From Escherichia phage DT571/2: a DNA stretch of 64,000 nucleotides. This document shows, in pieces, positions 822 to 64,000 of the stretch. The stretch is from the sequence record NC_047749.1. One strand, 5' to 3'. The stretch's first letter is position 1. Every line of letters begins with the position of its first letter. The position numbers and the translations under genes are program-made. The notes beneath the pieces are model-generated. The model saw nothing but the letters and a program-made list of their open reading frames with translations, had not been told where the DNA came from and searched no databases.

Positions 822-850
822 TTGCTTTCAGCCAAAAATTTATATATAAT
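822..850 (+). promoter_or_regulatory. T5-type sigma70 promoter (-35 TTGCTT, 17-bp spacer, -10 TATAAT)
   Basis: ttgctt 822-827, tataat 845-850, then conserved leader agatttgtaaatttgagaggag containing the RBS for the ORF at 879. Confidence 0.65.
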
Positions 851-878
851 AGATTTGTAAATTTGAGAGGAGAAAGCT

Positions 879-4424: not shown

Positions 4425-7214
4425 GTGTTTTCTATCCTCCAAGGTCACGCCGGGTTTTCTCGTGATTTAGCAACAGGTATTTGGCGAGAAATCAAAGCGG
4501 GAGATTATACCTTTGCCAAGCGATTCTCGAAAGAGCATCCAGAAGGTAAACCAGCTTCTATGCCCTTCAAATTTGATGTAATAGAAGAGCACGACCCACA
4601 AAGCCTTGCAGAAATGTTACCACTTATGAGACGTTTAACGTCTGACCCTCATATCGTTGCGGTACGAGGTCGATGTCTTGCACCTAAAAATAATGTGCGA
4701 CGTAAGAAAGATAACTTTAATGTATCTAATCCTAGTAATATTATTGCTATGGACGTGGATGGTATCCTAGATACCGGTGGGTACGACAAATTTAATCTTG
4801 TTGGTATGGCCCGCCACATTATTAAGATGTTGAATAGTATTAGTGAGGATATGTTTCCTCTTGATGCAGGCTTTATAGCTCATGCATCATCTTCGGCTGG
4901 GCTAAAACCAGGTATCCGAATGCACTTAATACTAGAATCTAACGTCAAGGTAACTCAGGGTCAGCTAAAGTTCTTATTTACATCTATCAATGATAGTAGT
5001 AAGCAAAAATTTGGTTTTGATATTGCCGACCTAGCTTATTACTCATCTGTCCAGCTCCACTATTTTGCCGACCCCTTATTTAGCGATGGTATTGTTGATC
5101 CGTTTAAAGCGGAGAGTAAGCCACGTCTGGTGTATGTTAAAGGCTCAAAAGTAAACTTACCTAATAATCTAGTTGACTATGAAACAACTAGAGGAGAGTT
5201 TAAAGAGGAATTCTACTCTTTACTCGATCAAATTAAAGGCAAAAAGATTGCTTCTGATAAAGTAGAAGAAACCATCAGCGAGTTAGAAGAGGCTGATGAT
5301 GGAGTGTACTTGCGTATTATCCCCAAACTATACCATAGAGCATTAGAGGATGGTGTTGATTTTGAATGGCTAGAACGTGAGATTAAACCAGCTTTATCTG
5401 AATATATTGCAACTAAAGATAACAGTCGTAATATTCAAGATTACTTTAATAACGGTCGCAAGCAGGCTCTCAAAGCGTTTGTTAATAATTCTAAACGTGA
5501 GATTCCACCAAATCTGAAAGGTGTTCCACTTAAGAAATTAGAAGTGGATTCTCCACCAGAAGTTCCGTACCTGAAGATTAACATTGTGCCCCCAAAAGGT
5601 CATATAACATTTGTTAAGGCAAGTCTTGGTACGGGTAAAACTACGGCAGTAACTAAATGGCTGGACGCAGGTGTTCTTCCGGGCAACTTTTTAGCAGTTA
5701 CAAATACTAGAGCACTGGTATCTTCAAATGCCAAGAAATTTAGTGCAGGACAATACGATAAGTCTGTAGATATGCTCAACTTTAAACGTGGGGCTATTGA
5801 TCGTATGTCCACAACTATTCACTCTTTGCATAAGTTCAAAAGTTTTATTGGGCAAATAGACACCATTTTTATTGATGAATGTGACGCTGTAATGAATGAC
5901 CTATTATTCGCCCCTGTTGTTAAACAACGTCGCGAGTGTATTCAAGTTCTACGTGACATCCTCATGACAGCTAAGACTGTAATCTTATCCGATGGTGATA
6001 TTAGTGCGGAAACAATTGAAGCATATGGTTCTTTGATTGAGTTCGATAAACCAGTTGCATTTTACAATCACCACCGTAAAATGTTATCAAAGGCTCATGC
6101 TTATGAATTCCCTGATGAATCCAGTATTTGGGTTGCACTTCAGACTTCTCTAGAGATGGGTGAGAAATCTATTCTAGTATCTGATTGTGGTCCTGATGAG
6201 CTGAATGAGAAGGGTATGGCACTACGTCGTAATACTGGTGCATTAGTTAAAGAAATCCATTCAAACTCCACTTCAGATGTGGATATTCGACGTATTCTGG
6301 ATTATACAACTAATGAGCTAATTGATCAACAAATTGATTGCTTATTATGTAGTCCATCCGTAACGAGTGGAGTTGACTTTAACTATTTTGATAACGTATT
6401 TGTTATTACTAGAACCAGTAATCAGGCGCCAAACATGCGTTTTCAAGCAATCAGGCGCGACCGTGGTGCTCAGAATATCTATTATTTTATTGATAAATCC
6501 ACTAGTGGATTCTCTGCGGGTTCTGAACAATATAATATCGATGAAGGTTGGCTGGAGTTAGCACAGCAATTATATGCACGTCGCAGGGAGCTGGAGTCTA
6601 GGAACTATACTAGTACTTTACGTTATTACTTGCTTGATCAGGGTGCAACTATTGATATTTTCAGTGAAAGCTGGGGAACTATTGAAGGTGCTGGTAAAGA
6701 ATACACAGAAGAGCGAATCAAAGCTATTCTACATTCAACTCCTGATTATTGTGCTCCACGTCATGCGGATGCGTATGAGGCTAAACTACTTATTGTTCGC
6801 TATTATCATCTTGAGTCTATTAAAGATGTAACAGTTGAGCATGTTGAACAATATATCAAAGATAAGCCGAATGATCGAGCTGCATTCTTCCATAAGATGC
6901 ACGAGATGTTCTGGGAAGATATTAAGAAGTGTTCAAATGTGACCATTAAACCATTCATAGAAGCTCTGAAAGGTAAGAAGAAAGATTTCTTCCTTAAAAC
7001 AGGTCAGAGTGCTAACCCAAAATATGCTAGAATGTATCTTGGTATGATGGGTATTGGTAAAGATATGAACACGGAGAATATCGTAGACTGGTATAGAACC
7101 TACTGCAAAATCGAATGTATGCCAATCCCTCTCAAATTCATGACTGAAGAAGAGAAGGCTATGGCAGAAGAAGCAATGTCAGAACTAGGTGCTAGAAATG
7201 ACAGTGAAGAATAA
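4425..7214 (+). CDS. 929-aa Walker A/B ATPase-helicase, putative replication initiator/origin-binding-type protein
   Basis: GTG start with SD acaggag 7 nt upstream; Walker A SLGTGKTT and Walker B FIDECD in the C-terminal half; N-terminal half has DVDG (DxD) and GIRMH motifs compatible with a primase-polymerase-like domain. Confidence 0.6.
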   Translation: MFSILQGHAGFSRDLATGIWREIKAGDYTFAKRFSKEHPEGKPASMPFKFDVIEEHDPQSLAEMLPLMRRLTSDPHIVAVRGRCLAPKNNVRRKKDNFNVSNPSNIIAMDVDGILDTGGYDKFNLVGMARHIIKMLNSISEDMFPLDAGFIAHASSSAGLKPGIRMHLILESNVKVTQGQLKFLFTSINDSSKQKFGFDIADLAYYSSVQLHYFADPLFSDGIVDPFKAESKPRLVYVKGSKVNLPNNLVDYETTRGEFKEEFYSLLDQIKGKKIASDKVEETISELEEADDGVYLRIIPKLYHRALEDGVDFEWLEREIKPALSEYIATKDNSRNIQDYFNNGRKQALKAFVNNSKREIPPNLKGVPLKKLEVDSPPEVPYLKINIVPPKGHITFVKASLGTGKTTAVTKWLDAGVLPGNFLAVTNTRALVSSNAKKFSAGQYDKSVDMLNFKRGAIDRMSTTIHSLHKFKSFIGQIDTIFIDECDAVMNDLLFAPVVKQRRECIQVLRDILMTAKTVILSDGDISAETIEAYGSLIEFDKPVAFYNHHRKMLSKAHAYEFPDESSIWVALQTSLEMGEKSILVSDCGPDELNEKGMALRRNTGALVKEIHSNSTSDVDIRRILDYTTNELIDQQIDCLLCSPSVTSGVDFNYFDNVFVITRTSNQAPNMRFQAIRRDRGAQNIYYFIDKSTSGFSAGSEQYNIDEGWLELAQQLYARRRELESRNYTSTLRYYLLDQGATIDIFSESWGTIEGAGKEYTEERIKAILHSTPDYCAPRHADAYEAKLLIVRYYHLESIKDVTVEHVEQYIKDKPNDRAAFFHKMHEMFWEDIKKCSNVTIKPFIEALKGKKKDFFLKTGQSANPKYARMYLGMMGIGKDMNTENIVDWYRTYCKIECMPIPLKFMTEEEKAMAEEAMSELGARNDSEE

Positions 7215-7440: not shown

Positions 7441-7469
7441 TTGCATAGTTCAAAAAATTTCTGTATAAT
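7441..7469 (+). promoter_or_regulatory. T5-type strong early promoter (PN25-like)
   Basis: A-rich upstream tcataaaaaatttac, -35 ttgcat 7441-7446, 17-bp spacer, -10 tataat 7464-7469, leader agattcataaatttgagagaggag; near-identical to the T5 PN25 promoter as I recall it. Confidence 0.8.
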
Positions 7470-7500
7470 AGATTCATAAATTTGAGAGAGGAGTTTAAAT

Positions 7501-19527: not shown

Positions 19528-19539
19528 ATGATGTATAAT
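19511..19539 (+). promoter_or_regulatory. T5-type sigma70 promoter
   Basis: ttggca 19511-19516, 17-bp spacer, tataat 19534-19539, leader atatacataaatttgagagag. Confidence 0.65.
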
Positions 19540-19610
19540 ATATACATAAATTTGAGAGAGAAAGTTTCGGATTGATAAGAAAGTCCGAAGCAGAAAAATA
19601 AAAATTTTAG

Positions 19611-54705: not shown

Positions 54706-54734
54706 TTGCTTTTATCTCTCTATTTTGCTATAAT
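54706..54734 (+). promoter_or_regulatory. T5-type sigma70 promoter for the lipoprotein gene
   Basis: ttgctt 54706-54711, 17-bp spacer, TGc-tataat 54726-54734, leader agattcataaattagaaatggagag. Confidence 0.7.
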
Positions 54735-54765
54735 AGATTCATAAATTAGAAATGGAGAGATAAAT

Positions 54766-55444: not shown

Positions 55445-55635
55445 TGGAAGTAGTAGCTACACTAATAGTAATACAAGTCTGGGCAACTTTCATTGTTTCT
55501 TATAACGCGTATGTTCGCCTAAAAACTCTAGAGGCTCAAGTAAAACAGCAACAAGTTACTCTAGAAAAGCTAGTACTACTGCAACGTTGTGATAGTACCC
55601 GCATTTTGCAAATTGAGAGGGAATTAGATGTTTAG
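55441..55635 (+). CDS. Small membrane protein with coiled-coil tail (64 aa)
   Basis: TM helix VVATLIVIQVWATFIV followed by a helical charged segment. Confidence 0.45.
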   Translation: MMEVVATLIVIQVWATFIVSYNAYVRLKTLEAQVKQQQVTLEKLVLLQRCDSTRILQIERELDV

Positions 55636-55873
55636 TATTATACTTGCTTTTATTATCGGGGTGCTTGCGGGAATTTTCGGAATGACTGCGGCTATTAACA
55701 AGCATCGCAAATATATCGCGGAAGTATCGCGGGAGATTGCGGAAAGGGAGCGGAAGTTTGACGAGAAACGTGCGGAGTTCGAACGGGAGTGGAGTGATGG
55801 TTCTCGGGCGTCGCGGAAGAGATTTCGTGAGTTTAGACCTGAACATCGGTTTGATGACCATTCTATGCGCTAA
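55628..55873 (+). CDS. Small membrane protein with highly charged C-terminal domain (81 aa)
   Basis: N-terminal TM helix FSIILAFIIGVLAGIFGM followed by an Arg/Glu-rich tail. Confidence 0.45.
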   Translation: MFSIILAFIIGVLAGIFGMTAAINKHRKYIAEVSREIAERERKFDEKRAEFEREWSDGSRASRKRFREFRPEHRFDDHSMR

Positions 55874-56038
55874 TTGGGAAATCTCGAAATTTCATAAGAT
55901 TACACATGGAGGTGTGCTCACCGCCGGAGGCGAAAATACTTAGTCTGCTAACCGCCACCCCCCGTTACTATTACTCTGCTAACTATTTCACCTTGCAACC
56001 ATTTTAATTGCAAGGTGAAACAAATTCAACTGTAATTA

Positions 56039-56773
56039 TTACGCTACTTTTAATTTCTCAATATATTGTTGTGGGCTGCAACTATATTCTGCGCGCTCCT
56101 CCTCGGTCATACCTTCCCAACATAATTGCAAGCGGTCGGCTAGGAACTGATAATCATTATCATCTTCAAGAGATTCATCAATAAAGGTTTCGCCGATCAA
56201 TGTGACGCCTATTGATAGAATATCGTTAACGGCTTGCGCGTCCAGCGTTTTAAATCCATATGCCGCCGCCGCTGATAATACGCCTTTATGATCATCAATC
56301 ATCGTGAAATCAGCGTTCGGATATAGCTGTTTGAATAGCTCAAAATAATGGCTTTTATATATAGCGTCTTTACTGTGGTATATTTCGCTAACCTTATCAG
56401 CCGTAAAATATTTGTGAAGTGTATCGCGGGAAAATACGCGGATATTGCTATTCCCACGCCCTCGCAGACCTTGTTTGCGCAAATAATAATAATCCGACTT
56501 ACTCATCAGGCGAGCGGTGCAAATAATGTTTAACGTGTTGGCGTCATTCATGCATTGGCGCATATAGGTAACGAGCGGCAAAAGCGTATCCTGCATTATT
56601 AACTCATGTTTGCACGCTTCATTTTTATACTTATTTAAATCTAAATCGCCTTCAATATCAAAGCAAGGCGCTACACGGTGGGCGGAGTTAATGATCGTGC
56701 CGTCCAGATCCCAAATCATTACGCGGGAAATATGCGGGTAATTGCGGGAAATATTCTTTTTATCTTGATTCAT
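56039..56773 (-). CDS. dmp: 5'-deoxyribonucleotidase (HAD family; T5 dmp-like, 244 aa)
   Basis: HAD motif I IWDLDGTI near the N-terminus; 244 aa; pre-early-region context. Confidence 0.7.
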   Translation of the reverse strand: MNQDKKNISRNYPHISRVMIWDLDGTIINSAHRVAPCFDIEGDLDLNKYKNEACKHELIMQDTLLPLVTYMRQCMNDANTLNIICTARLMSKSDYYYLRKQGLRGRGNSNIRVFSRDTLHKYFTADKVSEIYHSKDAIYKSHYFELFKQLYPNADFTMIDDHKGVLSAAAAYGFKTLDAQAVNDILSIGVTLIGETFIDESLEDDNDYQFLADRLQLCWEGMTEEERAEYSCSPQQYIEKLKVA

Positions 56774-56847
56774 TTTGTTACGTTCTCCATTAAAGGGATT
56801 AAGTTAATTTAATCCAGCCCATACAGTGGGCTGGAGTATTTCAGTCA

Positions 56848-57249
56848 TTAAAATACCAGACCATAAGCCAAAGCATCAGCGATAACAGTAATATCCTCGC
56901 CAGATACACCGGAACGAATACCGGCGCATGTAAATACCTTCGCGCTCATTAACTGATCATCAAGACAAGCGGGGCAAGGCGCGACAACTGCGAAAGCTAA
57001 ACCAGCTTTTGCGGCGTCAATAATAGTCGTTTCTTGTTTCATCGTATCAATGTAAACGCCTTTCGCCTTGATGCGGCTAGATAGCTTGCCCGTGGTGTAG
57101 GCGAAAGTAGTGATCTGTAGCGCCTCATTAAATTCGATTAAGTCATCAACAACGTGCCCCGCCTCGACGTGATAGCGCTCACCGGTAGAATAAACTAGGA
57201 CGATTGCAGACTGCGCGCGATCGAATGGGATACGGTTGTAAGTAGTCAT
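56848..57249 (-). CDS. Hypothetical pre-early protein (133 aa)
   Basis: ORF with the conserved ggagtt-ATG initiation region shared by neighbours. Confidence 0.45.
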   Translation of the reverse strand: MTTYNRIPFDRAQSAIVLVYSTGERYHVEAGHVVDDLIEFNEALQITTFAYTTGKLSSRIKAKGVYIDTMKQETTIIDAAKAGLAFAVVAPCPACLDDQLMSAKVFTCAGIRSGVSGEDITVIADALAYGLVF

Positions 57250-57318
57250 GCGTATAACTCCAATTAATTTAATAAACTTTTATGGCGGCGGTATATTTCG
57301 CCCGCCCGCCTGATTTAT

Positions 57319-58983
57319 TTACGCGAAAAATTTGCCGTTTTTAAAGTCGATTAACGTGCGCTGCCCGTTTGCATATGTAATTACATGCGTTTGCGTCCAG
57401 CTTGATGCGCCGACGTTGTAGCCCATATCGAGGCTGCCCGATACGCCAGCAGTATATACGCCGCCGTAAATGCTGGCGGTATGGGTGTGCCCCGTGTTTA
57501 ATTTGCCCAACTTTTTAAATTGCTTCGGATTGCCGCGGCTCCCGTTGATGCCGTTGTGACCGTGTACGCCGCACTCAATGCCTGCAATCTTGAATGATTG
57601 ATCAGTCGTTAGGAATATGGCGTTAAACTCACAGCCTGCAACCTTGCGCAGCGCATAATCCAGCACGTTGAAAGTATCGTCATTTTCTGCAATAGCTCCA
57701 TAGATCGCGGCGTTGAGGCGGTGATATAGCTCTGCGTTTGCTGGATCGTCTTTAATGTTAGCGTTGCGATCATCCAGCCAACGGGATAACGCCAGATCGT
57801 GGTTTGACTCAACAATGATTGTTTGCGAGAAATCGCGCTCCATTGATTCCAATACACGCCCCGTGTCGATAAGATCATCTAAAACCTTATCACGTCCGGC
57901 GGCGTACTGTTTTGCTAGGAATACGCCAGATGCGCGATTGTGGTGGTTGCGTGATGTAAAGTCATGCACATCATGCACGAACTGATATTTAGGTTTAAGA
58001 ATATCAAGCAAACTATTTTCGCCCGCCCATGACGCTTCAGCACACGCCTTATCTAATTTTTCAGCGTGCACGTCGCCATACTGTAAACCTAAAACATGCC
58101 CCGATGTTTCATAACATCCGGCGGGAGTGGCGCAAATATTCAAATCATAAAAAACGCCGGTTTCATCCATCGTCTCAAGCTGGCGAACAAAAAATGCCCC
58201 GTCCTCGTCAAACTCGACAATCAGCGCGCCAAAGTTATGTAACGCTTCGGCCTTTTGCCCTGCTTTCTGCTGAATGTAGTTTTTTAGCGTTGCCGCTCCC
58301 GTTGAGTACATACGGCGCACTACTTCACCTTTGAGCGCTGGAACGCTTTCTGCGGTGATTTTAGCTGCTCCAATTGCCAAACCTTCAAGATCAAGCGCTG
58401 TTGCAGTCTCAGCGAATCCAGAAAGCGGGTAGTCTGCCGTTGGCAAAACATTAATCTCAGCCATGAAAGCAAAGCGGCGACTATTTAAAAACACGTTTTT
58501 ATTACAGATATATTTATCAAAAGCGGAATCATATTTGATCCCGTCCGCACCTTCTCCATTCTGGAATCCTTTTTTGTTATAAATGAACTTGCTAACCAGC
58601 AAATCAGCGCCGATAAATTGGGCGTAATGTTCAAGTGAGGCTAAAAAGTTTTTATGCGGGAACGTGTTGTTCTGGATTGATGTTATAATGAAGCGTTTGC
58701 CCTGCTTTACTTCCCACTGTTCAACCGTGCTAGAAATAATTCCCGCCGCCTCTGGGCGCTCGTCGTTTTTAACGGCTTTTGATGCTTTCGCCTCTTTTGG
58801 TTTCGCTGGTTTGTTTGCTTCCAGCCAATCACAAATTGCGGTCGAATGTTTTGCCGTATCGTACACCGCTTTTGATATATCGTCGCAGACTTCCAATCTA
58901 GTAGCGCGCAGACGTTTACCGTAAAAATTAAAATCAGCGGCCAGCTTCAGGATAACGGTTTGTTTTTCTGCGGAAATAACCAT
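57319..58983 (-). CDS. A1: Pre-early protein A1-like, metallophosphoesterase fold (554 aa)
   Basis: Calcineurin-like motifs in order: GDVH, ESNHD, HGHNG, GHTH; size close to T5 A1 (556 aa as I recall). Confidence 0.6.
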   Translation of the reverse strand: MVISAEKQTVILKLAADFNFYGKRLRATRLEVCDDISKAVYDTAKHSTAICDWLEANKPAKPKEAKASKAVKNDERPEAAGIISSTVEQWEVKQGKRFIITSIQNNTFPHKNFLASLEHYAQFIGADLLVSKFIYNKKGFQNGEGADGIKYDSAFDKYICNKNVFLNSRRFAFMAEINVLPTADYPLSGFAETATALDLEGLAIGAAKITAESVPALKGEVVRRMYSTGAATLKNYIQQKAGQKAEALHNFGALIVEFDEDGAFFVRQLETMDETGVFYDLNICATPAGCYETSGHVLGLQYGDVHAEKLDKACAEASWAGENSLLDILKPKYQFVHDVHDFTSRNHHNRASGVFLAKQYAAGRDKVLDDLIDTGRVLESMERDFSQTIIVESNHDLALSRWLDDRNANIKDDPANAELYHRLNAAIYGAIAENDDTFNVLDYALRKVAGCEFNAIFLTTDQSFKIAGIECGVHGHNGINGSRGNPKQFKKLGKLNTGHTHTASIYGGVYTAGVSGSLDMGYNVGASSWTQTHVITYANGQRTLIDFKNGKFFA

Positions 58984-59080
58984 AATATTAAAACTCCATT
59001 AAAGGGATTAAGAACGTTTGTTATTGGCAAATATTGCCAAATATAACGCTGCTTATTAACAGCGTTATAATTTGCAATAC

Positions 59081-59326
59081 TTAACTGATCGGCATCAGGC
59101 TAGAACTAACACCACAAACAACGGCGGTAATAAAACAAAATAAGCCTAAACGCTTTGCTAACTTTGATTTGCGTTTAAAGTAATATGAATCCAGATCATT
59201 CTGGAAATAAGCGAACAATAATGAGGCCGCTACAATAAATAAACCTAGAATTAACGATTCAGTGGGATAAAAGATCATTTTAATAATTCCAGTTAAAGGG
59301 AAATTATAGTGGGGAATATTCCCCAC
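59081..59326 (-). CDS. Small membrane protein (81 aa)
   Basis: Two predicted TM helices. Confidence 0.4.
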   Translation of the reverse strand: MGNIPHYNFPLTGIIKMIFYPTESLILGLFIVAASLLFAYFQNDLDSYYFKRKSKLAKRLGLFCFITAVVCGVSSSLMPIS

Positions 59327-59335
59327 TAATTAAAT

Positions 59336-59752
59336 TTATTCACCTGCGGATTGTTTTACTTCATCTGCTACGCCTAGTAATTGCGCTACGGCGTCCAGCG
59401 TTTCTAATTTTGCGCTTTCCAGACTTGCCAGATCGTCGGCGTCTTTGATAATGCCGGAATCAATGGCATGTTTAGCAATAACGCGCACATAATGCGCCTT
59501 GCGGATTGAACTACCGCCGCCAACTTTGCGCGGTTTATCGCTTTTCTGATACGCTTTTGCGCTGGTCAATTTTGAGCGAACAGACACAGGGGAAGTAGCG
59601 CCCACTGTTTTGGCGATCTCTTTCAGGCCGTCGCTGTTTGCGAACTCTAAACCGTTTTCATTGATTAATTGCTGATACATAGAAACGGCTTTTTGGGTAT
59701 TTTCTTCATTCCATGCAAATTTTGCGGATTTTTCGGTTTTAACGTTAGTCAT
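59336..59752 (-). CDS. Pre-early protein, A2-like by size and position (138 aa)
   Basis: Directly upstream (in transcription order) of the A1-like gene. Confidence 0.45.
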   Translation of the reverse strand: MTNVKTEKSAKFAWNEENTQKAVSMYQQLINENGLEFANSDGLKEIAKTVGATSPVSVRSKLTSAKAYQKSDKPRKVGGGSSIRKAHYVRVIAKHAIDSGIIKDADDLASLESAKLETLDAVAQLLGVADEVKQSAGE

Positions 59753-59852
59753 GGTATAAACTCCAATTAATTTAATTTAAGGGATAAGATTAACATAATG
59801 TTAATCGTTATATTTCCCCAATAGTTCGGGGAAATATAAAGTTAACACTAAA

Positions 59853-60104
59853 CTATGCTACAGCTTCCAATTTTTCGTTACGTTGAACAACTTTTACAAC
59901 GTCGCCAGATTTAACGCGAACACTAAAAACGGTTTTTCCGTTGTTGCTACGTTCCGTTTCTGCATATACTGCATCAATTACATCGAACGGCATGAGCGCC
60001 GCGCCTTTGATGCGTTCGGCCTTTCCGGTTGCCTCGTCTGTTTTAGTAACGAAAGGGATGAAAACGGATTGACCAATTTTTGGCGCGGTGATAGCGTTTT
60101 TCAT
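59853..60104 (-). CDS. Hypothetical pre-early protein (83 aa)
   Basis: Shares the ggagtttatacc-ATG initiation region with the A2-like gene. Confidence 0.45.
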   Translation of the reverse strand: MKNAITAPKIGQSVFIPFVTKTDEATGKAERIKGAALMPFDVIDAVYAETERSNNGKTVFSVRVKSGDVVKVVQRNEKLEAVA

Positions 60105-60338
60105 GGTATAAACTCCAGTTATTTGATGGATTGTTCCGCATTACCTGCTAAAAAATAATAACAGGTAATAAGAAAAAATCCGCTCACCGTTAAAATCAAT
60201 TTAAGGAACTCCACACAGGCCGCTATATCCCGTTAGGGGGCGGGGCACATTATGGCAAGTACCGGCCGTCAAATTTTACCAAGTTATCGCTCTTGTTGAA
60301 TCGGGTACATTTTAAAGCCTATCGGCTAGGGCGTCAAA

Positions 60339-60509
60339 TTATTTTTCGTTTTCTTTTAAATTAGAATTCTCCCAACTGAATTGCATCTCGCAAAATATTT
60401 TCCCATCTTTATGATGGTAAGCGATCTCGCTCCCGTGGTTAGCACAGAAAGCGATCACTGCCTCAGCTTGTTCTACCGTGATATTGTTGGCCGTTTCTTT
60501 GATTTTCAT
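60339..60509 (-). CDS. Small hypothetical protein (56 aa, not in the ORF track)
   Basis: Strong SD aaggaga 7 nt upstream of ATG at 60509; translates to MKIKETANNITVEQAEAVIAF... Confidence 0.4.
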   Translation of the reverse strand: MKIKETANNITVEQAEAVIAFCANHGSEIAYHHKDGKIFCEMQFSWENSNLKENEK

Positions 60510-61132
60510 ATCGTCGTCTCCTTATAAGGTTAATAAGTTTGCCGCCGATGGGCTTTAAAATGCACCTGATTTTTAAAGAGCGCGGCGGTAAACTTTCCGC
60601 CGTGTAGTTCGTCATTGCCGCCCTACGAGATAAATAATAGGGAATACCCAAAAAAGGTGCAACCTTAATTTTGTAAAGAAATGTAAAGAAAGCAAATACC
60701 CGCACCGCGTCCGGCGATCGCCCAAGTTTAAAGGAAACAGGCGCGCGGATACCATAAAACCGAGCTGATTGGCAAGTAATTTTTTCATTTTTATTTGCCT
60801 TGCCCTACTTGACAAAACTTAAAAAGCTCGTGGTGACGATAAACGGGCTATCCCTTTATGATGGGATACCTGAAAAATTTACCGCGTTGTAGGACGTTTT
60901 AGGCCGCTTATCTTCGATTTAACAAATATTTAACAAAAGCAAAATTGAAAAATAGTTTGAGAAGGTATTGACTTTTTAAAATCAAGACTAAACGAGTTAT
61001 TTTAAAAAATTAATTAATTGACTTTTATTTGTTGTTGTGTAGTAGAAAGATAGCAGACTAATAATTGCTAGAATGATAATCATGCTGGTGATTGTAACAG
61101 ACTGAACTATTAGCAGACTACTGATCCCGGAA

Positions 61133-61176
61133 AATCTCATTAGCCAACTAACTATCTCATTAGCCAACTAACTATT
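61133..61176. repeat. Direct repeat 2 x ~21 bp (ctcattagccaactaactat)
   Basis: Two adjacent copies. Confidence 0.8.
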
Positions 61177-61185
61177 TCATAAGTT

Positions 61186-61365
61186 ATAATAACTATAAAA
61201 ATAATCACCGTTAAAATAATCACTATAAAAATAATCACCATTAAAATAATAACTATAGAAATAATCACCATTATAATAATCACCATTAAAATAATCACTA
61301 TAAAAATAATCACCATTAAAATAATCACTATAAAAATAATCACCATTATTATAATCACTATAAGA
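61186..61365. repeat. Tandem array, ~12 copies of a 15-bp AT-rich unit (ATAATCAC[C/T][A/G]TTAAA / ATAATCACTATAAAA)
   Basis: Contiguous 15-bp periodicity read directly from the sequence. Confidence 0.9.
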
Positions 61366-61401
61366 AACTATCGGCTTAAGTGAGAACCACTATCATTTAA
61401 G

Positions 61402-61510
61402 TTATCCACAACGTTATCCACAGCACAAAATGATTTGACACGATAGGCGGCGATATAAAGATTTATCCACAGACTTATCCACAGGTTATCCTACTGTATA
61501 TTTATCCAGG
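61402..61510. promoter_or_regulatory. DnaA-box cluster (4 perfect TTATCCACA plus 2 variants)
   Basis: TTATCCACA at 61402, 61414, 61463, 61475; variants ttatcctac 61486 and ttatccagg 61502. Confidence 0.8.
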
Positions 61511-61880
61511 GTAAAAAGATAGTGTTTACAACTGCAATCAATTTTGAGCGGCCTAAAACGCTTTCTAACGAGCTGATCGCTGTAGGGTAATATTAAAGTA
61601 AAGCCTTTACCCGTCGGCCTAGAGGCTTCGCCGTGTTTTGCTCTTTACTGCACCGCTGCGCGGTTAGCATAAAACTAGGTGTTAGGCAAGAAAAATAAAA
61701 AGTAAAGTAAACGTTGCCCCTAGAAAGAAAATAATTTTACCGGTAACATCGAAAGCGGGTAATAATTAACCTAATGTAAAGTTTTGTAAGGCCCGCCATA
61801 ATCAGCGGCCTTTTTTGTTATACTGCCCTTACACCGTTTAAGGACGGTTAAAAATTTCCCGAAAAATTTGGAGGCTTAAA

Positions 61881-62060
61881 ATGGTTATTTTTCGATCTAT
61901 TCTGGCGGGTATCTTGGGCGCTATTTTAACTCTATTTGCTACCGCTTACGGTATTCAAGATTCTTATTGCGGTTTAGTAAATACTAAACCTATGGTTATT
62001 ATTGGCGCGGGTATCGCTGTTTTTTCTTATTTGCTGGGCTGCATGAATAAAGGAGAATAA
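61881..62060 (+). CDS. Small membrane protein (59 aa)
   Basis: SD ggagg 6 nt upstream of ATG; two hydrophobic helices. Confidence 0.45.
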   Translation: MVIFRSILAGILGAILTLFATAYGIQDSYCGLVNTKPMVIIGAGIAVFSYLLGCMNKGE

Positions 62061-62062
62061 AA

Positions 62063-62275
62063 ATGATCCGCAACGTTTCTCTTGCTCGTTCCAAAGGTTT
62101 TAAGCTGGTGGATGTAAACACGTTCGAGCGTCCTGGTTGTAAAATCGAATATATAGCGCGGAATAAAAACGCTTTCCGCGTTACAGAAAAGAGATTCGAT
62201 AAACGCGGCAACGTGATAGCTGAAACGGTTAAATATTTTGCCACCTTTTACGCGGCCTTTCGTGGGGTATTATGA
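62063..62275 (+). CDS. Hypothetical protein (70 aa)
   Basis: SD aaggaga; part of a tightly packed small-gene operon. Confidence 0.45.
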   Translation: MIRNVSLARSKGFKLVDVNTFERPGCKIEYIARNKNAFRVTEKRFDKRGNVIAETVKYFATFYAAFRGVL

Positions 62276-62397
62276 AGAGCGTTGTTATTGTTATCCTTGC
62301 AATGGTTGGCGGTTTTACCACCACCTTGTTTAGAAATGATCCTCTTTTGCTAGGGATCTTTATGCTTTTATCTGGTTATCTGATCGGGAGGTTATAA
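62272..62397 (+). CDS. Small membrane protein (41 aa)
   Basis: ATGA overlap with the previous ORF; hydrophobic. Confidence 0.35.
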   Translation: MKSVVIVILAMVGGFTTTLFRNDPLLLGIFMLLSGYLIGRL

Positions 62398-62398
62398 A

Positions 62399-62743
62399 AT
62401 GGTGATTTATGAAGGTGATCGCCTTGTTGCTGATTGCCGTCCGGCATTGTTAGCAAACTACTTAAACCAGCTTTCGCCAGTATATAAAGGCGTTATAAAT
62501 ATTTATGAAGGCGGGGCGCATTATAAGATTAATGCGGTCGTTGCCCGTGAACTAGCGTTTCAATTTTTAACCTTTTCATCTTGCAATATTCAGGTCATGG
62601 GTGAGGCGTTAATTGCAGAAAATGAAGATGATTTTATTAATATCTTTCGCAAGATATGCACCGAGCGCCTGATAATGAAAGGGGCATATATTCAATCCAC
62701 TGCGGATAGTATTGAAACGGCTTTTCGAAAGGTGGCACAATGA
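62399..62743 (+). CDS. Hypothetical protein (114 aa)
   Basis: SD gggagg 7 nt upstream. Confidence 0.45.
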   Translation: MVIYEGDRLVADCRPALLANYLNQLSPVYKGVINIYEGGAHYKINAVVARELAFQFLTFSSCNIQVMGEALIAENEDDFINIFRKICTERLIMKGAYIQSTADSIETAFRKVAQ

Positions 62744-62848
62744 AGCTATATATTTTCGCGGGTAATGTTGAGGCTGCAAATGATTCCGCTGGTGGCGATA
62801 GCGTTCGCCATTATTGGCAAAATTATATTTACTAGGCGTAATGATCAC

Positions 62849-62903
62849 GGGGCACAACTATCAGGGAGTGCCCCTGATTCTCAAATGAGAATCATTCTCA
62901 TTT
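62849..62903. repeat. Hairpin (ggggcac/gtgcccc) followed by a perfect 21-bp palindrome aaatgagaatcattctcattt
   Basis: Palindrome at 62883-62903 is related to the 23-bp array units downstream. Confidence 0.8.
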
Positions 62904-63136
62904 GACCGCGCCCGCGATGGTTAGCACACTAATGATTAGGGTGTTACGTGTCGCCTTGTGTGATCGTTAGCGGGCTAACTAATTTTCAAGCCTCCTCCAG
63001 ATTTGCCCTTGTTTTAGTATCCCCATCAAAATAAAACGCGTTAGAAAGCGATTCAGGGCGTTTTAGGCCTATATTAGAATTATTCACTGCGTAGGAATAC
63101 TGTATATTTATACAGTAGAATAACCTGGGGATAAGT

Positions 63137-63208
63137 CGGTGGATAACGCTTCAAAATGGCTAGAATTTTGTCAAGGCAAATCGTGCTGTTGATAAGTCTG
63201 TGGATAAC
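63137..63208. promoter_or_regulatory. Second DnaA-box group, opposite orientation (tgtggataa)
   Basis: gtggataac 63139-63147 (8/9) and perfect tgtggataa 63200-63208. Confidence 0.65.
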
Positions 63209-63240
63209 TTAAATAACAGTGTTTCTCACTTCCGTTTTTA

Positions 63241-63505
63241 AATGCGAATCATTATCATTTGCATTCCACTTCTTAAATGAGAATCATTTCACTTCTTGAA
63301 TAGTTCTCATTCCCTTTCTTAAATGAGAATCATTTCACTTCTTGAATAGTTCTCATTTCACTTCTTGAATAGTTCTCATTCCACTTCTTAAATGAGAATC
63401 ATTCCACTTCTTAAATGAGAATCATTCCACCTCTTAAATGAGAATGATTATCATTCGCATTCCACTTCTTAAATGCGAATGATAATCATTCTCATTCGCA
63501 TTCCG
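63241..63505. repeat. Tandem array of ~9 copies of a 23-bp unit in two variants, flanked by palindromic aatg(c/a)gaat..attcgcatt elements
   Basis: Variants CCACTTCTTAAATGAGAATCATT and TCACTTCTTGAATAGTTCTCATT. Confidence 0.9.
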
Positions 63506-63509
63506 GCGA

Positions 63510-63755
63510 GCAGGGCAATTGCCCTGCGCTTATGTGCAAATCCGACAATTGCTCCAAGGGTTACGCGAGGGCATGTATGTGCAAATCCGACCCATTTTTT
63601 GGTAGTGTGCAAATCCGACCCCAAAAATTTATAAATTCGTGAGAGTGACAAATCTGTCTCCCAAAAACTCCAGCAATCACGAACTGCGTTCGAATCCTGT
63701 GGGGTATGTGCAAATCCGACACGGTTTTTCTAGGATTAAGATGTGCGAATCCGAT
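63510..63755. repeat. 18-bp palindrome gcagggcaattgccctgc plus 5 dispersed copies of the 14-mer TGTGCAAATCCGAC
   Basis: 14-mer at 63533, 63578, 63606, 63707 and variant tgtgcgaatccgat at 63742. Confidence 0.85.
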
Positions 63756-64000
63756 GAAATTTTTGTGACTTCGATGAGAGGGTGTGTGATTGTATAGGTT
63801 TGAGGAGAAGATGAGAGAGCGAGAAAAATTTTGGGGCTAGAAGTGTATGGGCGCAGGATTGGTGCGGAGCACCTGATTTGCGGGGGTTTTGGGGGATAGT
63901 GGAGATAATTTGGGGAAATTTGAGATAGGTGCAGAAAAAGTAAAATTTTATTAGCTAAAGGGGGCAATATAGCTTGACAATTGAAAATTCTTGTGGCTCT

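Follow-up and report, generated by a model that had tools for sequence, protein, structure and literature searches.

Why do the first-injected genes of a T5-like phage carry repeated strings just ahead of their start codons? The question is raised by a window of 64,000 nucleotides (nt), the whole stretch analyzed, from Escherichia phage DT571/2 (NC_047749.1). An initial annotation of its letters had noticed shared leader sequences at 56774-60120 and had suggested that they serve coordinated translational control or processing of pre-early transcripts. Our answer, which is tentative, is that the repeats may be the visible part of a class-specific composite translation-initiation region in the leftward pre-early operon of T5-like phages, composed of a short C-rich box, designated the C-box, and a GGAG Shine-Dalgarno (SD) sequence. 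Across this 5-kb region, the sequence matches 420 phage records and shows 100% identity to Escherichia phage DT57C (Tequintavirus), in whose record position p-55915 equals window position p. The gene identities given in the initial annotation agree with the annotation of DT57C, in which the operon lies on the minus strand and is transcribed in the order 007, A2, 005, A1, 002, dmp:

59853-60104, minus strand: T5.007 homologue (83 amino acids)
59336-59752, minus strand: A2
59081-59278, minus strand: T5.005 membrane protein (65 amino acids)
57319-58983, minus strand: A1
56848-57249, minus strand: T5.002 (133 amino acids)
56039-56773, minus strand: dmp

The product of 007 belongs to Pfam family DUF7177. 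In T5, the counterpart of this block is located in the terminal repeat, the first-step-transfer DNA, downstream of promoters P-H22 and P-D/E20 (T5 annotation), and recent genetics handles the block as a single operon (bioRxiv 10.64898/2026.04.02.716235).

The repeats themselves are real. The 19-mer CTTAATCCCTTTAATGGAG has exactly two copies, both on the minus strand, at 56785-56803 (dmp) and 58994-59012 (A1), and ends 11 nt and 10 nt, respectively, from the ATG. Shuffled sequences give an expectation of 0.02 matches with three mismatches permitted, so the motif described before the dmp-like and A1-like starts is far above chance. The second motif, described before the open reading frames (ORFs) of 133 amino acids, of the A2-like protein and of 83 amino acids, is likewise found at all three. 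The 22-mer ATTAATTGGAGTTTATACCATG is exact at 59750-59771 (A2) and has two mismatches at 60102-60123 (007), for a chance expectation of 0.00, while the 002 leader carries ATTAATTGGAGTT-ATACGCATG, that is, an exact 13-mer ATTAATTGGAGTT at 57256-57268, after which one base is deleted and one is substituted. The string TGGAGTTTATAC has two exact copies, compared to 0.03 expected. The span first given does hold the repeats, but the 007 leader runs on to 60132, and a degenerate copy of the first motif, TTTCCCTTTAACTGGAA, ahead of 005 at 59287-59302, had been left off the list of leaders.

We compared the leaders of DT57C and T5 side by side, followed by those of 41 further loci retrieved with A1 as bait. 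They share a grammar, which runs from a stop codon through one or more hairpins, a short A/T spacer, a C-box of the form [A/T]TCCC[T/A]T[T/A]A, 6-16 A/T-rich nt, YGGAG, and a further 7-9 nt to the ATG. The C-box is located 24-35 nt ahead of the ATG. All copies lie on the mRNA strand, between a hairpin and a GGAG that is about 7-10 nt from the ATG. In the 19-mer the spacer is at its shortest (AATCCCTTTAA-T-GGAG), and the second motif is the SD-proximal half of a long-spacer version, which in A2 reads ATCCCTTAAATTAAATTAATTGGAG. The leaders are as follows:

56785-56803, minus strand: dmp leader, the 19-mer CTTAATCCCTTTAATGGAG; C-box AATCCCTTTAA at 56790-56800, GGAG at 56785-56788, ATG at 56771-56773
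57247-57271, minus strand: 002 leader AAATTAATTGGAGTTATACGCATG, SD-proximal motif only
58994-59012, minus strand: A1 leader, the same 19-mer; GGAG at 58994-58997, ATG at 58981-58983
59287-59302, minus strand: 005 leader TTCCCTTTAACTGGAA, C-box with a degenerate SD; ATG at 59276-59278
59750-59785, minus strand: A2 leader ATCCCTTAAATTAAATTAATTGGAGTTTATACCATG, C-box, 16-nt A/T spacer, GGAG at 59761-59764, ATG at 59750-59752
60102-60132, minus strand: 007 leader AATCCATCAAATAACTGGAGTTTATACCATG, with a C-box that is degenerate in DT57C (AATCCA)
61855-61883, plus strand: leader TTTCCCGAAAAATTTGGAGGCTTAAAATG, C-box and SD type, ahead of the first rightward pre-early gene, which is T5.012-like and carries the annotation T5p012 homologue

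An SD of the GGAG type precedes the annotated starts of dmp, 002, A1, A2, and 007; 005 has GGAA in DT57C and GGAG in T5 and most relatives. The C-box of 007 reads AATCCCC in most relatives, in a leader of the form AATCCCCTAAATAACTTGGAG. That of 002 is missing in DT57C and in one other locus (L020), and most other relatives read ATCCCTTATTAAAYTAATTGGAG. The rightward gene starts at 61881 (plus strand), and its leader carries TTTCCCGAAAAATTTGGAGG.

Conservation in relatives was the check on which the initial annotation had staked its proposal, and the bipartite element comes through it. Relatives were counted as close when their A1 was at least 89% identical, and in these the columns of C-box and GGAG are conserved to 95% or more. 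Over the last 30 leader columns, the major-allele frequency is 0.78-0.92, compared to 0.71-0.89 at third codon positions of adjacent genes in the same genomes. The leader exceeds the third codon positions for five of the six genes, the exception being 005 (0.78 vs. 0.81), for which the alignment is a mixture of two non-homologous upstream alleles. All of the close relatives listed keep TCCCTTTA in their A1 leaders except for L031 (TCCCTC). The spacer between the SD and ATG of dmp, GGAGAACGTAACAAA (56774-56788, minus strand), is almost invariant in 28 unique relatives, the most of any leader spacer, which hints that initiation of dmp is under extra constraint.

The literal strings fare less well than the element they contain. 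In the A2 leader, the C-box is invariant among relatives and the SD-proximal part is variable. The A2 leader of T5 reads aaataaacaggagttacatc, and several A2 alleles occur interchangeably; that the leaders of A2, 007, and 002 are nearly identical in DT57C is therefore partly lineage-specific, as is the exact string ATTAATTGGAGTTTATACC, which varies between lineages. What is conserved is a C-box and a GGAG, rather than a 19-mer or a 22-mer.

This holds for distant relatives as well, a set with A1 identity of 33-73% that consists of two Klebsiella-type loci, two further loci, Erwinia KEY, Proteus phage 1, Aeromonas Akh-2, and Vibrio D124. Their intergenic DNA is unalignable. Nevertheless, WCCC occurs at -45 to -13 in 23 of 34 of their A1-operon leaders, compared to 6.7 +/- 2.1 in composition-matched shuffles, none of 2000 of which reaches 23. 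Examples include TTCCCTTTAATTAGGAG and TTCCCTTTAAAAACTATTTAGGAG in Proteus, AATCCCTTTAAGGAG in Aeromonas, and ATCCCTTAAATGGAG in Erwinia.

The element is restricted to one class of genes. Within the operon span, three of six candidate starts have TCCC at -40 to -9, compared to two of 44 elsewhere in the window, and one of those two belongs to the rightward pre-early gene. A profile hidden Markov model (HMM) was built from 88 unique leaders, all from relatives and with DT57C excluded, and was run on both strands of the complete 108-kb DT57C genome (the window plus L059). Genome-wide, the only significant matches are the starts of A2 (E = 1.2e-5), A1 (1.8e-4), dmp (8.3e-4), and 007 (0.032), and nothing beyond pre-early starts is significant. 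The 002 and 005 leaders rank 6th and 7th, with weak matches (E = 1.3 for 002, to its SD-proximal half only, and 1.4 for 005). Other genes in the window have different leaders and mixed SD types. Position, fixed orientation, and GGAG-to-ATG spacing all point to a role in translation initiation.

The leaders are separated by structured RNA. Every intergenic region has one or two hairpins, and folding z-scores are -3 to -4.9 in five of the six regions tested; the region upstream of 002 has z = -0.5. The hairpins are:

56814-56834, minus strand: hairpin between 002 and dmp, CCAGCCCACTGTATGGGCTGG, z = -3.2, no U-tract; relatives have a different, non-homologous hairpin there
57284-57310, minus strand: hairpin between A1 and 002, GGCGGGCGGGCGAAATATACCGCCGCC, by direct reading
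59024-59069, minus strand: two hairpins between 005 and A1 (59042-59069 and 59024-59040), z = -4.9
59307-59328, minus strand: hairpin between A2 and 005, TAGTGGGGAATATTCCCCACTA, by folding
59788-59838, minus strand: two hairpins between 007 and A2 (59809-59838 and 59788-59806), z = -4.8, strong covariation
60140-60169, minus strand: hairpin in the 5' untranslated region (UTR) of 007, z = -4.0, covariation CG/UA/GC

Of 30 unique relatives, 28-30 preserve any given pair of the 005/A1 hairpins, and compensatory substitutions are seen; one pair upstream of A2 is AU in nine relatives, CG in eight, GC in six, and UA in four. On direct reading, the tails of the minus-strand intergenic hairpins are A/T-mixed, and no T-run was reported for them. 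Lacking a U-tract, they are not classical intrinsic terminators. Gene content and hairpins in this part of the operon also vary by locus. Between A1 and 002, T5.003 or HNH genes are present or absent, and the hairpins upstream of 005, 002, and dmp occur as non-homologous alternative alleles, e.g. two unrelated ones upstream of dmp and of 005 (both observations from loci L003-L043). The homology breakpoints fall close to the conserved leaders, which suggests cassette-like (mosaic) recombination.

Upstream of the operon are promoters and copies of boxA, the antitermination signal of rRNA (rrn) operons:

60309-60337, minus strand: sigma-70 promoter TTGACG-17-TAAAAT, equivalent of T5 P-D/E20, which drives 007 through dmp (consensus scan; T5 annotation; bioRxiv 10.64898/2026.04.02.716235)
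60634-60662, minus strand: predicted promoter TTGCAC-17-TATTAT upstream of the hairpin-boxA unit, missed by the consensus scan, found by direct reading and conserved in the alignment
60570-60601, minus strand: hairpin GGCGGAAAGTTTACCGCC (60584-60601) followed directly by a canonical rrn-type boxA, GCTCTTTAAAAA (60570-60581)
60197-60209, minus strand: variant boxA GTTCCTTAAATTG, between the P-D/E20-type promoter and the 007 5'-UTR hairpin; T5 has GTTCTTTAAATTG

The P-D/E20-type promoter is conserved in relatives as TTGACA-17-TAAGAT (alignment). A second sigma-70 promoter at about 60250-60272 is not claimed, as its spacer would be merely 12 nt. The site at 60570-60581 has the 8-nt boxA core GCUCUUUA on the transcribed strand of a 5' leader, after a hairpin, and is identical to the rrnH boxA across GCTCTTTAA; the rrnH leader reads GCTCTTTAACAATTT. 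The order, boxB and then boxA, is also that of rrn leaders. All 43 close loci carry the unit on the strand of A1, and distant relatives carry one to four boxA copies on it; in every T5-like relative examined, boxA lies on the operon strand downstream of the promoters. In Proteus phage 1, four precede the A1 operon and one precedes the divergent operon, making five in 10.6 kb, all on the correct strand; Erwinia KEY has two, and Vibrio D124 has one just upstream of an A2-like gene. The form is GCTCTTTAA[A/C]AA, usually right after a hairpin (loci L002-L043, L054, L055, and L057). In Epseptimavirus-like and Klebsiella relatives, GCTCTTTAA lies within about 20 nt after the P-D/E20-type promoter. 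The variant in the 007 5' UTR is located farther downstream of that promoter and reads GTTCTTTAA in T5 and GTTCCTTAA in DT57C. MAFFT placed variant and canonical boxA in different columns, so their correspondence rests on relative position and a common downstream ...aacgg. On the rightward side, GCTCTTTAC follows a hairpin at 61640-61648 (plus strand).

The pre-early operon very probably recruits NusB/NusE and the remainder of the host antitermination complex, and such recruitment would account for the passage of polymerase through the six sets of hairpins between genes. We found no report linking boxA with T5 or Demerecviridae in the openly accessible literature searched. The initial proposal of coordinated translational control stands in part, since position, orientation, and spacing make a translational role likely; coordination of that translation is plausible, and no regulator was found. 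Such coordination as the sequence itself signals lies in transcription: boxA after the operon promoters.

The proposed mechanism joins these elements. Transcripts would start at host sigma-70 promoters, and boxA would then allow Nus factors to turn the polymerase into a fast, termination-resistant form. Such a polymerase would read through the intergenic hairpins, in a polycistronic transcript, and would outpace the ribosomes, so that each cistron would need an autonomous ribosome entry site. Each cistron may accordingly be described as a module consisting of a hairpin, a C-box, an A/T spacer, a minimal 4-nt SD (GGAG, usually YGGAGT), and an ATG. A/U- and pyrimidine-rich sites upstream of SDs are targets of ribosomal protein S1 and offer one precedent. 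The C-box might offer the 30S subunit a second contact, through S1 or G-rich 16S segments, or might be contacted by another factor. By supplementing the short SD it could bring about similar, simultaneous, and independent initiation of all pre-early cistrons.

Known elements provide partial precedents, and extended ribosome sites and upstream enhancers are already known as a kind. The T7 gene 10 leader has an upstream enhancer that adds to the SD (PMC8748333). This epsilon element, UUAACUUUA, is likewise a short conserved element of a phage leader just upstream of the SD, and the C-box has the corresponding position, 6-16 nt 5' of GGAG on the mRNA strand. There is a local resemblance (UUAAUCCCUUUAAUGGAG vs. 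UUAACUUUAAGAAGGAG), and part of the C-box, UUCCCUUU, can pair with 16S nt 450-457, adjoining the proposed epsilon target. However, neither the epsilon sequence nor a unique match to 16S nt 458-466 is found in the leader, which reads UUAAUCCCUUUAA. The T5-type element, a putative enhancer, differs further in its CCC core, its variable distance to the SD, and its presence on at least six cistrons that belong to a single temporal class. Ribosome (30S) binding in vitro is promoted by C-rich motifs, obtained by in vitro selection, that precede a start codon (Barendt et al. 2012, PMC3310771). These resemble the C-box in being short, C-rich, and upstream of the start, with broad contacts to G-rich 16S rRNA proposed under a multiple-contact model. 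They replaced the SD, however, whereas the C-box is a single box of 3-4 C residues beside a genuine GGAG in a natural coliphage.

Several observations weigh against a composite initiation region. Some leaders have no C-box (002 of DT57C and L020, T5.003, and hdi), and that of 007 is degenerate in DT57C. A rigid composite site is also hard to square with a C-box-to-SD distance that ranges between 6 and 16 nt. Matches to 16S rRNA as long as that at 450-457 occur at the G-rich segments 140-150 and 662-672; the complementarity is not unique, and with several equal targets it lends no specific support to rRNA pairing. C-rich ribosome-binding motifs alone perform poorly in E. coli in vivo (PMC3310771). 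Finally, folding models pair the SD chiefly with the C-box (UCC:GGA), at 0.1-0.55 of possible pairs in the ensemble, and changing CCC to AAA in silico raises the predicted unpaired probability of the SD by 0.07-0.20. By these models, conservation of the C-box does not serve to hold the SD open.

This last result, that the C-box brings no gain in predicted SD accessibility, speaks for the strongest alternative, one we regard as unlikely. Here a factor acting in trans, which could be an RNA-binding protein or a nuclease of phage or host, would recognize the C-box and GGAG as its operator and switch the pre-early class on or off after transcription, e.g. within the A1-dependent shut-off. TCCC is never swapped for other pyrimidine runs, a specificity greater than a ribosome site requires. 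The motif is limited to one temporal class, all of whose members use GGAG while other genes have mixed SD types. The shut-off of pre-early expression does depend on A1 (T5 annotation; bioRxiv 10.64898/2026.04.02.716235), but it is currently attributed to the action of A1 on RNA polymerase at pre-early promoters (same preprint). No candidate factor emerged: Pfam and PHROGs show no RNA-binding domain in the pre-early proteins, and nowhere in the genome does the motif occur in antisense. Complementarity between the leaders and the annotated stable RNAs of T5 type (RNAI, RNAIII, RNA2H, RNA3, and RNAX) does not rise above background, with duplex energies within those of shuffled controls (|z| < 2) and one value weaker than the shuffle.

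T4 illustrates how such a switch may operate. In the ribosome sites of T4 early genes, RegB cleaves GGAG, and RegA is a translational repressor that acts at an operator. The T5-type leaders are similar in that the earliest genes of a virulent coliphage have GGAG SDs class-wide, which permits class-wide post-transcriptional control. They differ in that no RegA or RegB homologue and no cleavage was identified here and the upstream C-box has no T4 counterpart.

More doubtful is the idea that the C-box acts in cis as a weak partner of the SD, in a small hairpin that damps translation or shields the site from long-range misfolding. The C-box and GGAG are the sole G/C-containing stretches in A/U-rich leaders, both minimum-free-energy and ensemble folds pair them, and the in silico change noted above frees the SD as this idea predicts. 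Against this, there are at most three contiguous pairs, the perfect partner CUCC is never seen, loop length ranges from 6 to 16 nt, and the stems are marginal at 37 C. Because GGAG never varies, UCC:GGA pairing (3 bp at most) gives no covariation that could be scored.

Only a slim chance is given to RNA processing, the other role suggested by the initial annotation. In this scheme, hairpin and C-box would be a processing or stability site, at which the transcript is cut between genes to leave hairpin-protected 3' ends and defined 5' ends beside the ribosome sites. A covarying hairpin without a U-tract does occur in every intergenic region, and the hairpin-then-leader arrangement is repeated six times. 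The stems, however, are 8-12 bp long, too short for typical RNase III sites, and no recognizable RNase E-type motif occurs at a fixed position. No Rfam family was found: a search of 55500-64000 with 4227 covariance models gave just two sub-threshold chance matches. A literature search turned up no transcript-end data. Processing is thus unsupported as a role for the repeats. A second T4 system, the PeSL cassettes, comprises an early promoter and stem-loop flanking small ORFs. The T5 modules resemble these as repeated stem-loop regulatory modules between small early genes with mosaic gene content; unlike PeSL, they have no promoter, and it is the ribosome site rather than the stem-loop sequence that is conserved.

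It is very unlikely, and already disfavoured, that the motif has no function of its own and reflects common descent, gene conversion, or cassette recombination superimposed on generic A/T-rich SD leaders. The lineage-specific 22-mer shared by A2 and 007, the interchangeable A2 alleles, and the swapping of non-homologous hairpins with boundaries near the leaders, which indicates mosaic recombination, all lean this way. Yet the C-box persists amid unalignable intergenic DNA and before non-orthologous genes, the leader is conserved above synonymous sites for five of six genes, and across the other ~100 kb of the genome the HMM scan does not find the motif.

Least probable of all is that the C-boxes are weak copies of boxA that reload NusB/NusE between genes in the manner of the spacer boxA of rrn operons: ATCCCTTTAA does resemble GCTCTTTAA (matching C3, C5, U6, U7, U8, and A9), the C-box shares a CUUUAA core with rrn and lambdoid boxA, follows a hairpin as rrn boxA follows boxB, and lies in an operon with a genuine boxA, but position 2 is always A/U in place of G, position 4 is always C in place of U, more than 100 leaders show no drift toward GCUC while true copies are strictly GCTCTTTAA, the C-box lies inside the ribosome-binding region rather than near a promoter, and the lambda boxA changes G2U, C5A, and U6G strongly lower NusB-NusE affinity (PMC3177189). 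Even the partial match of the C-box ATCCCTTTA to boxA (C5, U6, U7, U8, A9) is confined to the A1, dmp, and 005 leaders and is weaker in A2, 002, and 007.

Three further assignments for the leader motif were considered and rejected. The consensus scan reported no promoter-like site at any leader, and taking TTTAAT as a -10 element would start the transcript within or after GGAG, with loss of the SD. Upstream ORFs of three and six codons are opened by ATGGAG in the A1 and dmp leaders (in dmp the TGA of the six-codon frame overlaps the dmp ATG), but no SD precedes them, and some relatives lack the ATG, reading ACGGAG or TAGGAG instead. A resemblance of TTATCCC and AATCCC to DnaA-box or IHF sites fails on direct reading, since the critical CACA or TTR parts are absent.

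Other features were noted around the operon and elsewhere in the window. DT57C lacks the T5 gene hdi (T5.008) together with its embedded P-H22 promoter (TTGACA..TAAAAT in relatives); window 60339-60509 (minus strand) stands opposite T5 4715-4918, and an unrelated 56-amino acid ORF with an AAGGAG site occupies the hdi position. The small ORF T5.009 (T5 4915-5022; window about 60520-60615, minus strand) has no SD and overlaps the hairpin-boxA unit, and this stretch more probably serves as a 5' leader than as a gene. A palindrome, TATCCCATCATAAAGGGATA, at 60850-60870 (minus strand) lies upstream of a 58-amino acid ORF at 60612-60788 and contains a C-box-like TATCCC paired with its own complement. 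Four exact DnaA boxes TTATCCACA form two pairs at 61402-61483 (plus strand), near a 15-bp tandem array ATAATCACCATTAAA of 11.5 copies and a 20-bp repeat of 2.3 copies (61134-61358). An ORF annotated as a 'repeat completion protein' (record 5237-5431, about window 61152-61346) lies wholly within the tandem array and is probably not a real gene. The classic T5 early promoter/leader, PN25-like and of the form TATAATAGATTCATAAATTTGAGAGAGGAG / TATAATAGATTCATAAATTTGAGAG..GGAG, has four copies for a chance expectation of 0 and constitutes a second, distinct class-specific leader:

845-869, plus strand: T5 early promoter/leader
7464-7488, plus strand: T5 early promoter/leader
19534-19558, plus strand: T5 early promoter/leader
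54729-54753, plus strand: T5 early promoter/leader

A leader of C-box and GGAG on first-injected genes, conserved across Demerecviridae, appears to be undescribed in the literature searched; no T5 leader motif was described in the openly accessible part of it. T5 is the classic phage with two-step injection, in which rapid expression of the pre-early genes gives way to their shut-off. A short, mutable cis element common to A1, A2, dmp, and their neighbors would be an experimental handle on pre-early expression, and boxA a second one, for asking whether the phage borrows the host rRNA antitermination machinery for its first transcripts. Should the less likely reading hold, with a dedicated factor acting on C-box and GGAG to activate or shut off the first-injected genes class-wide, on transcripts made rrn-like by boxB-boxA, then T5-like phages would time their two-step infection partly at the RNA level. 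The leaders also mark the true start codons of small pre-early genes and may supply compact ribosome sites for phage engineering. Even if they are ordinary strong ribosome sites, they would provide a useful annotation rule for this phage family.

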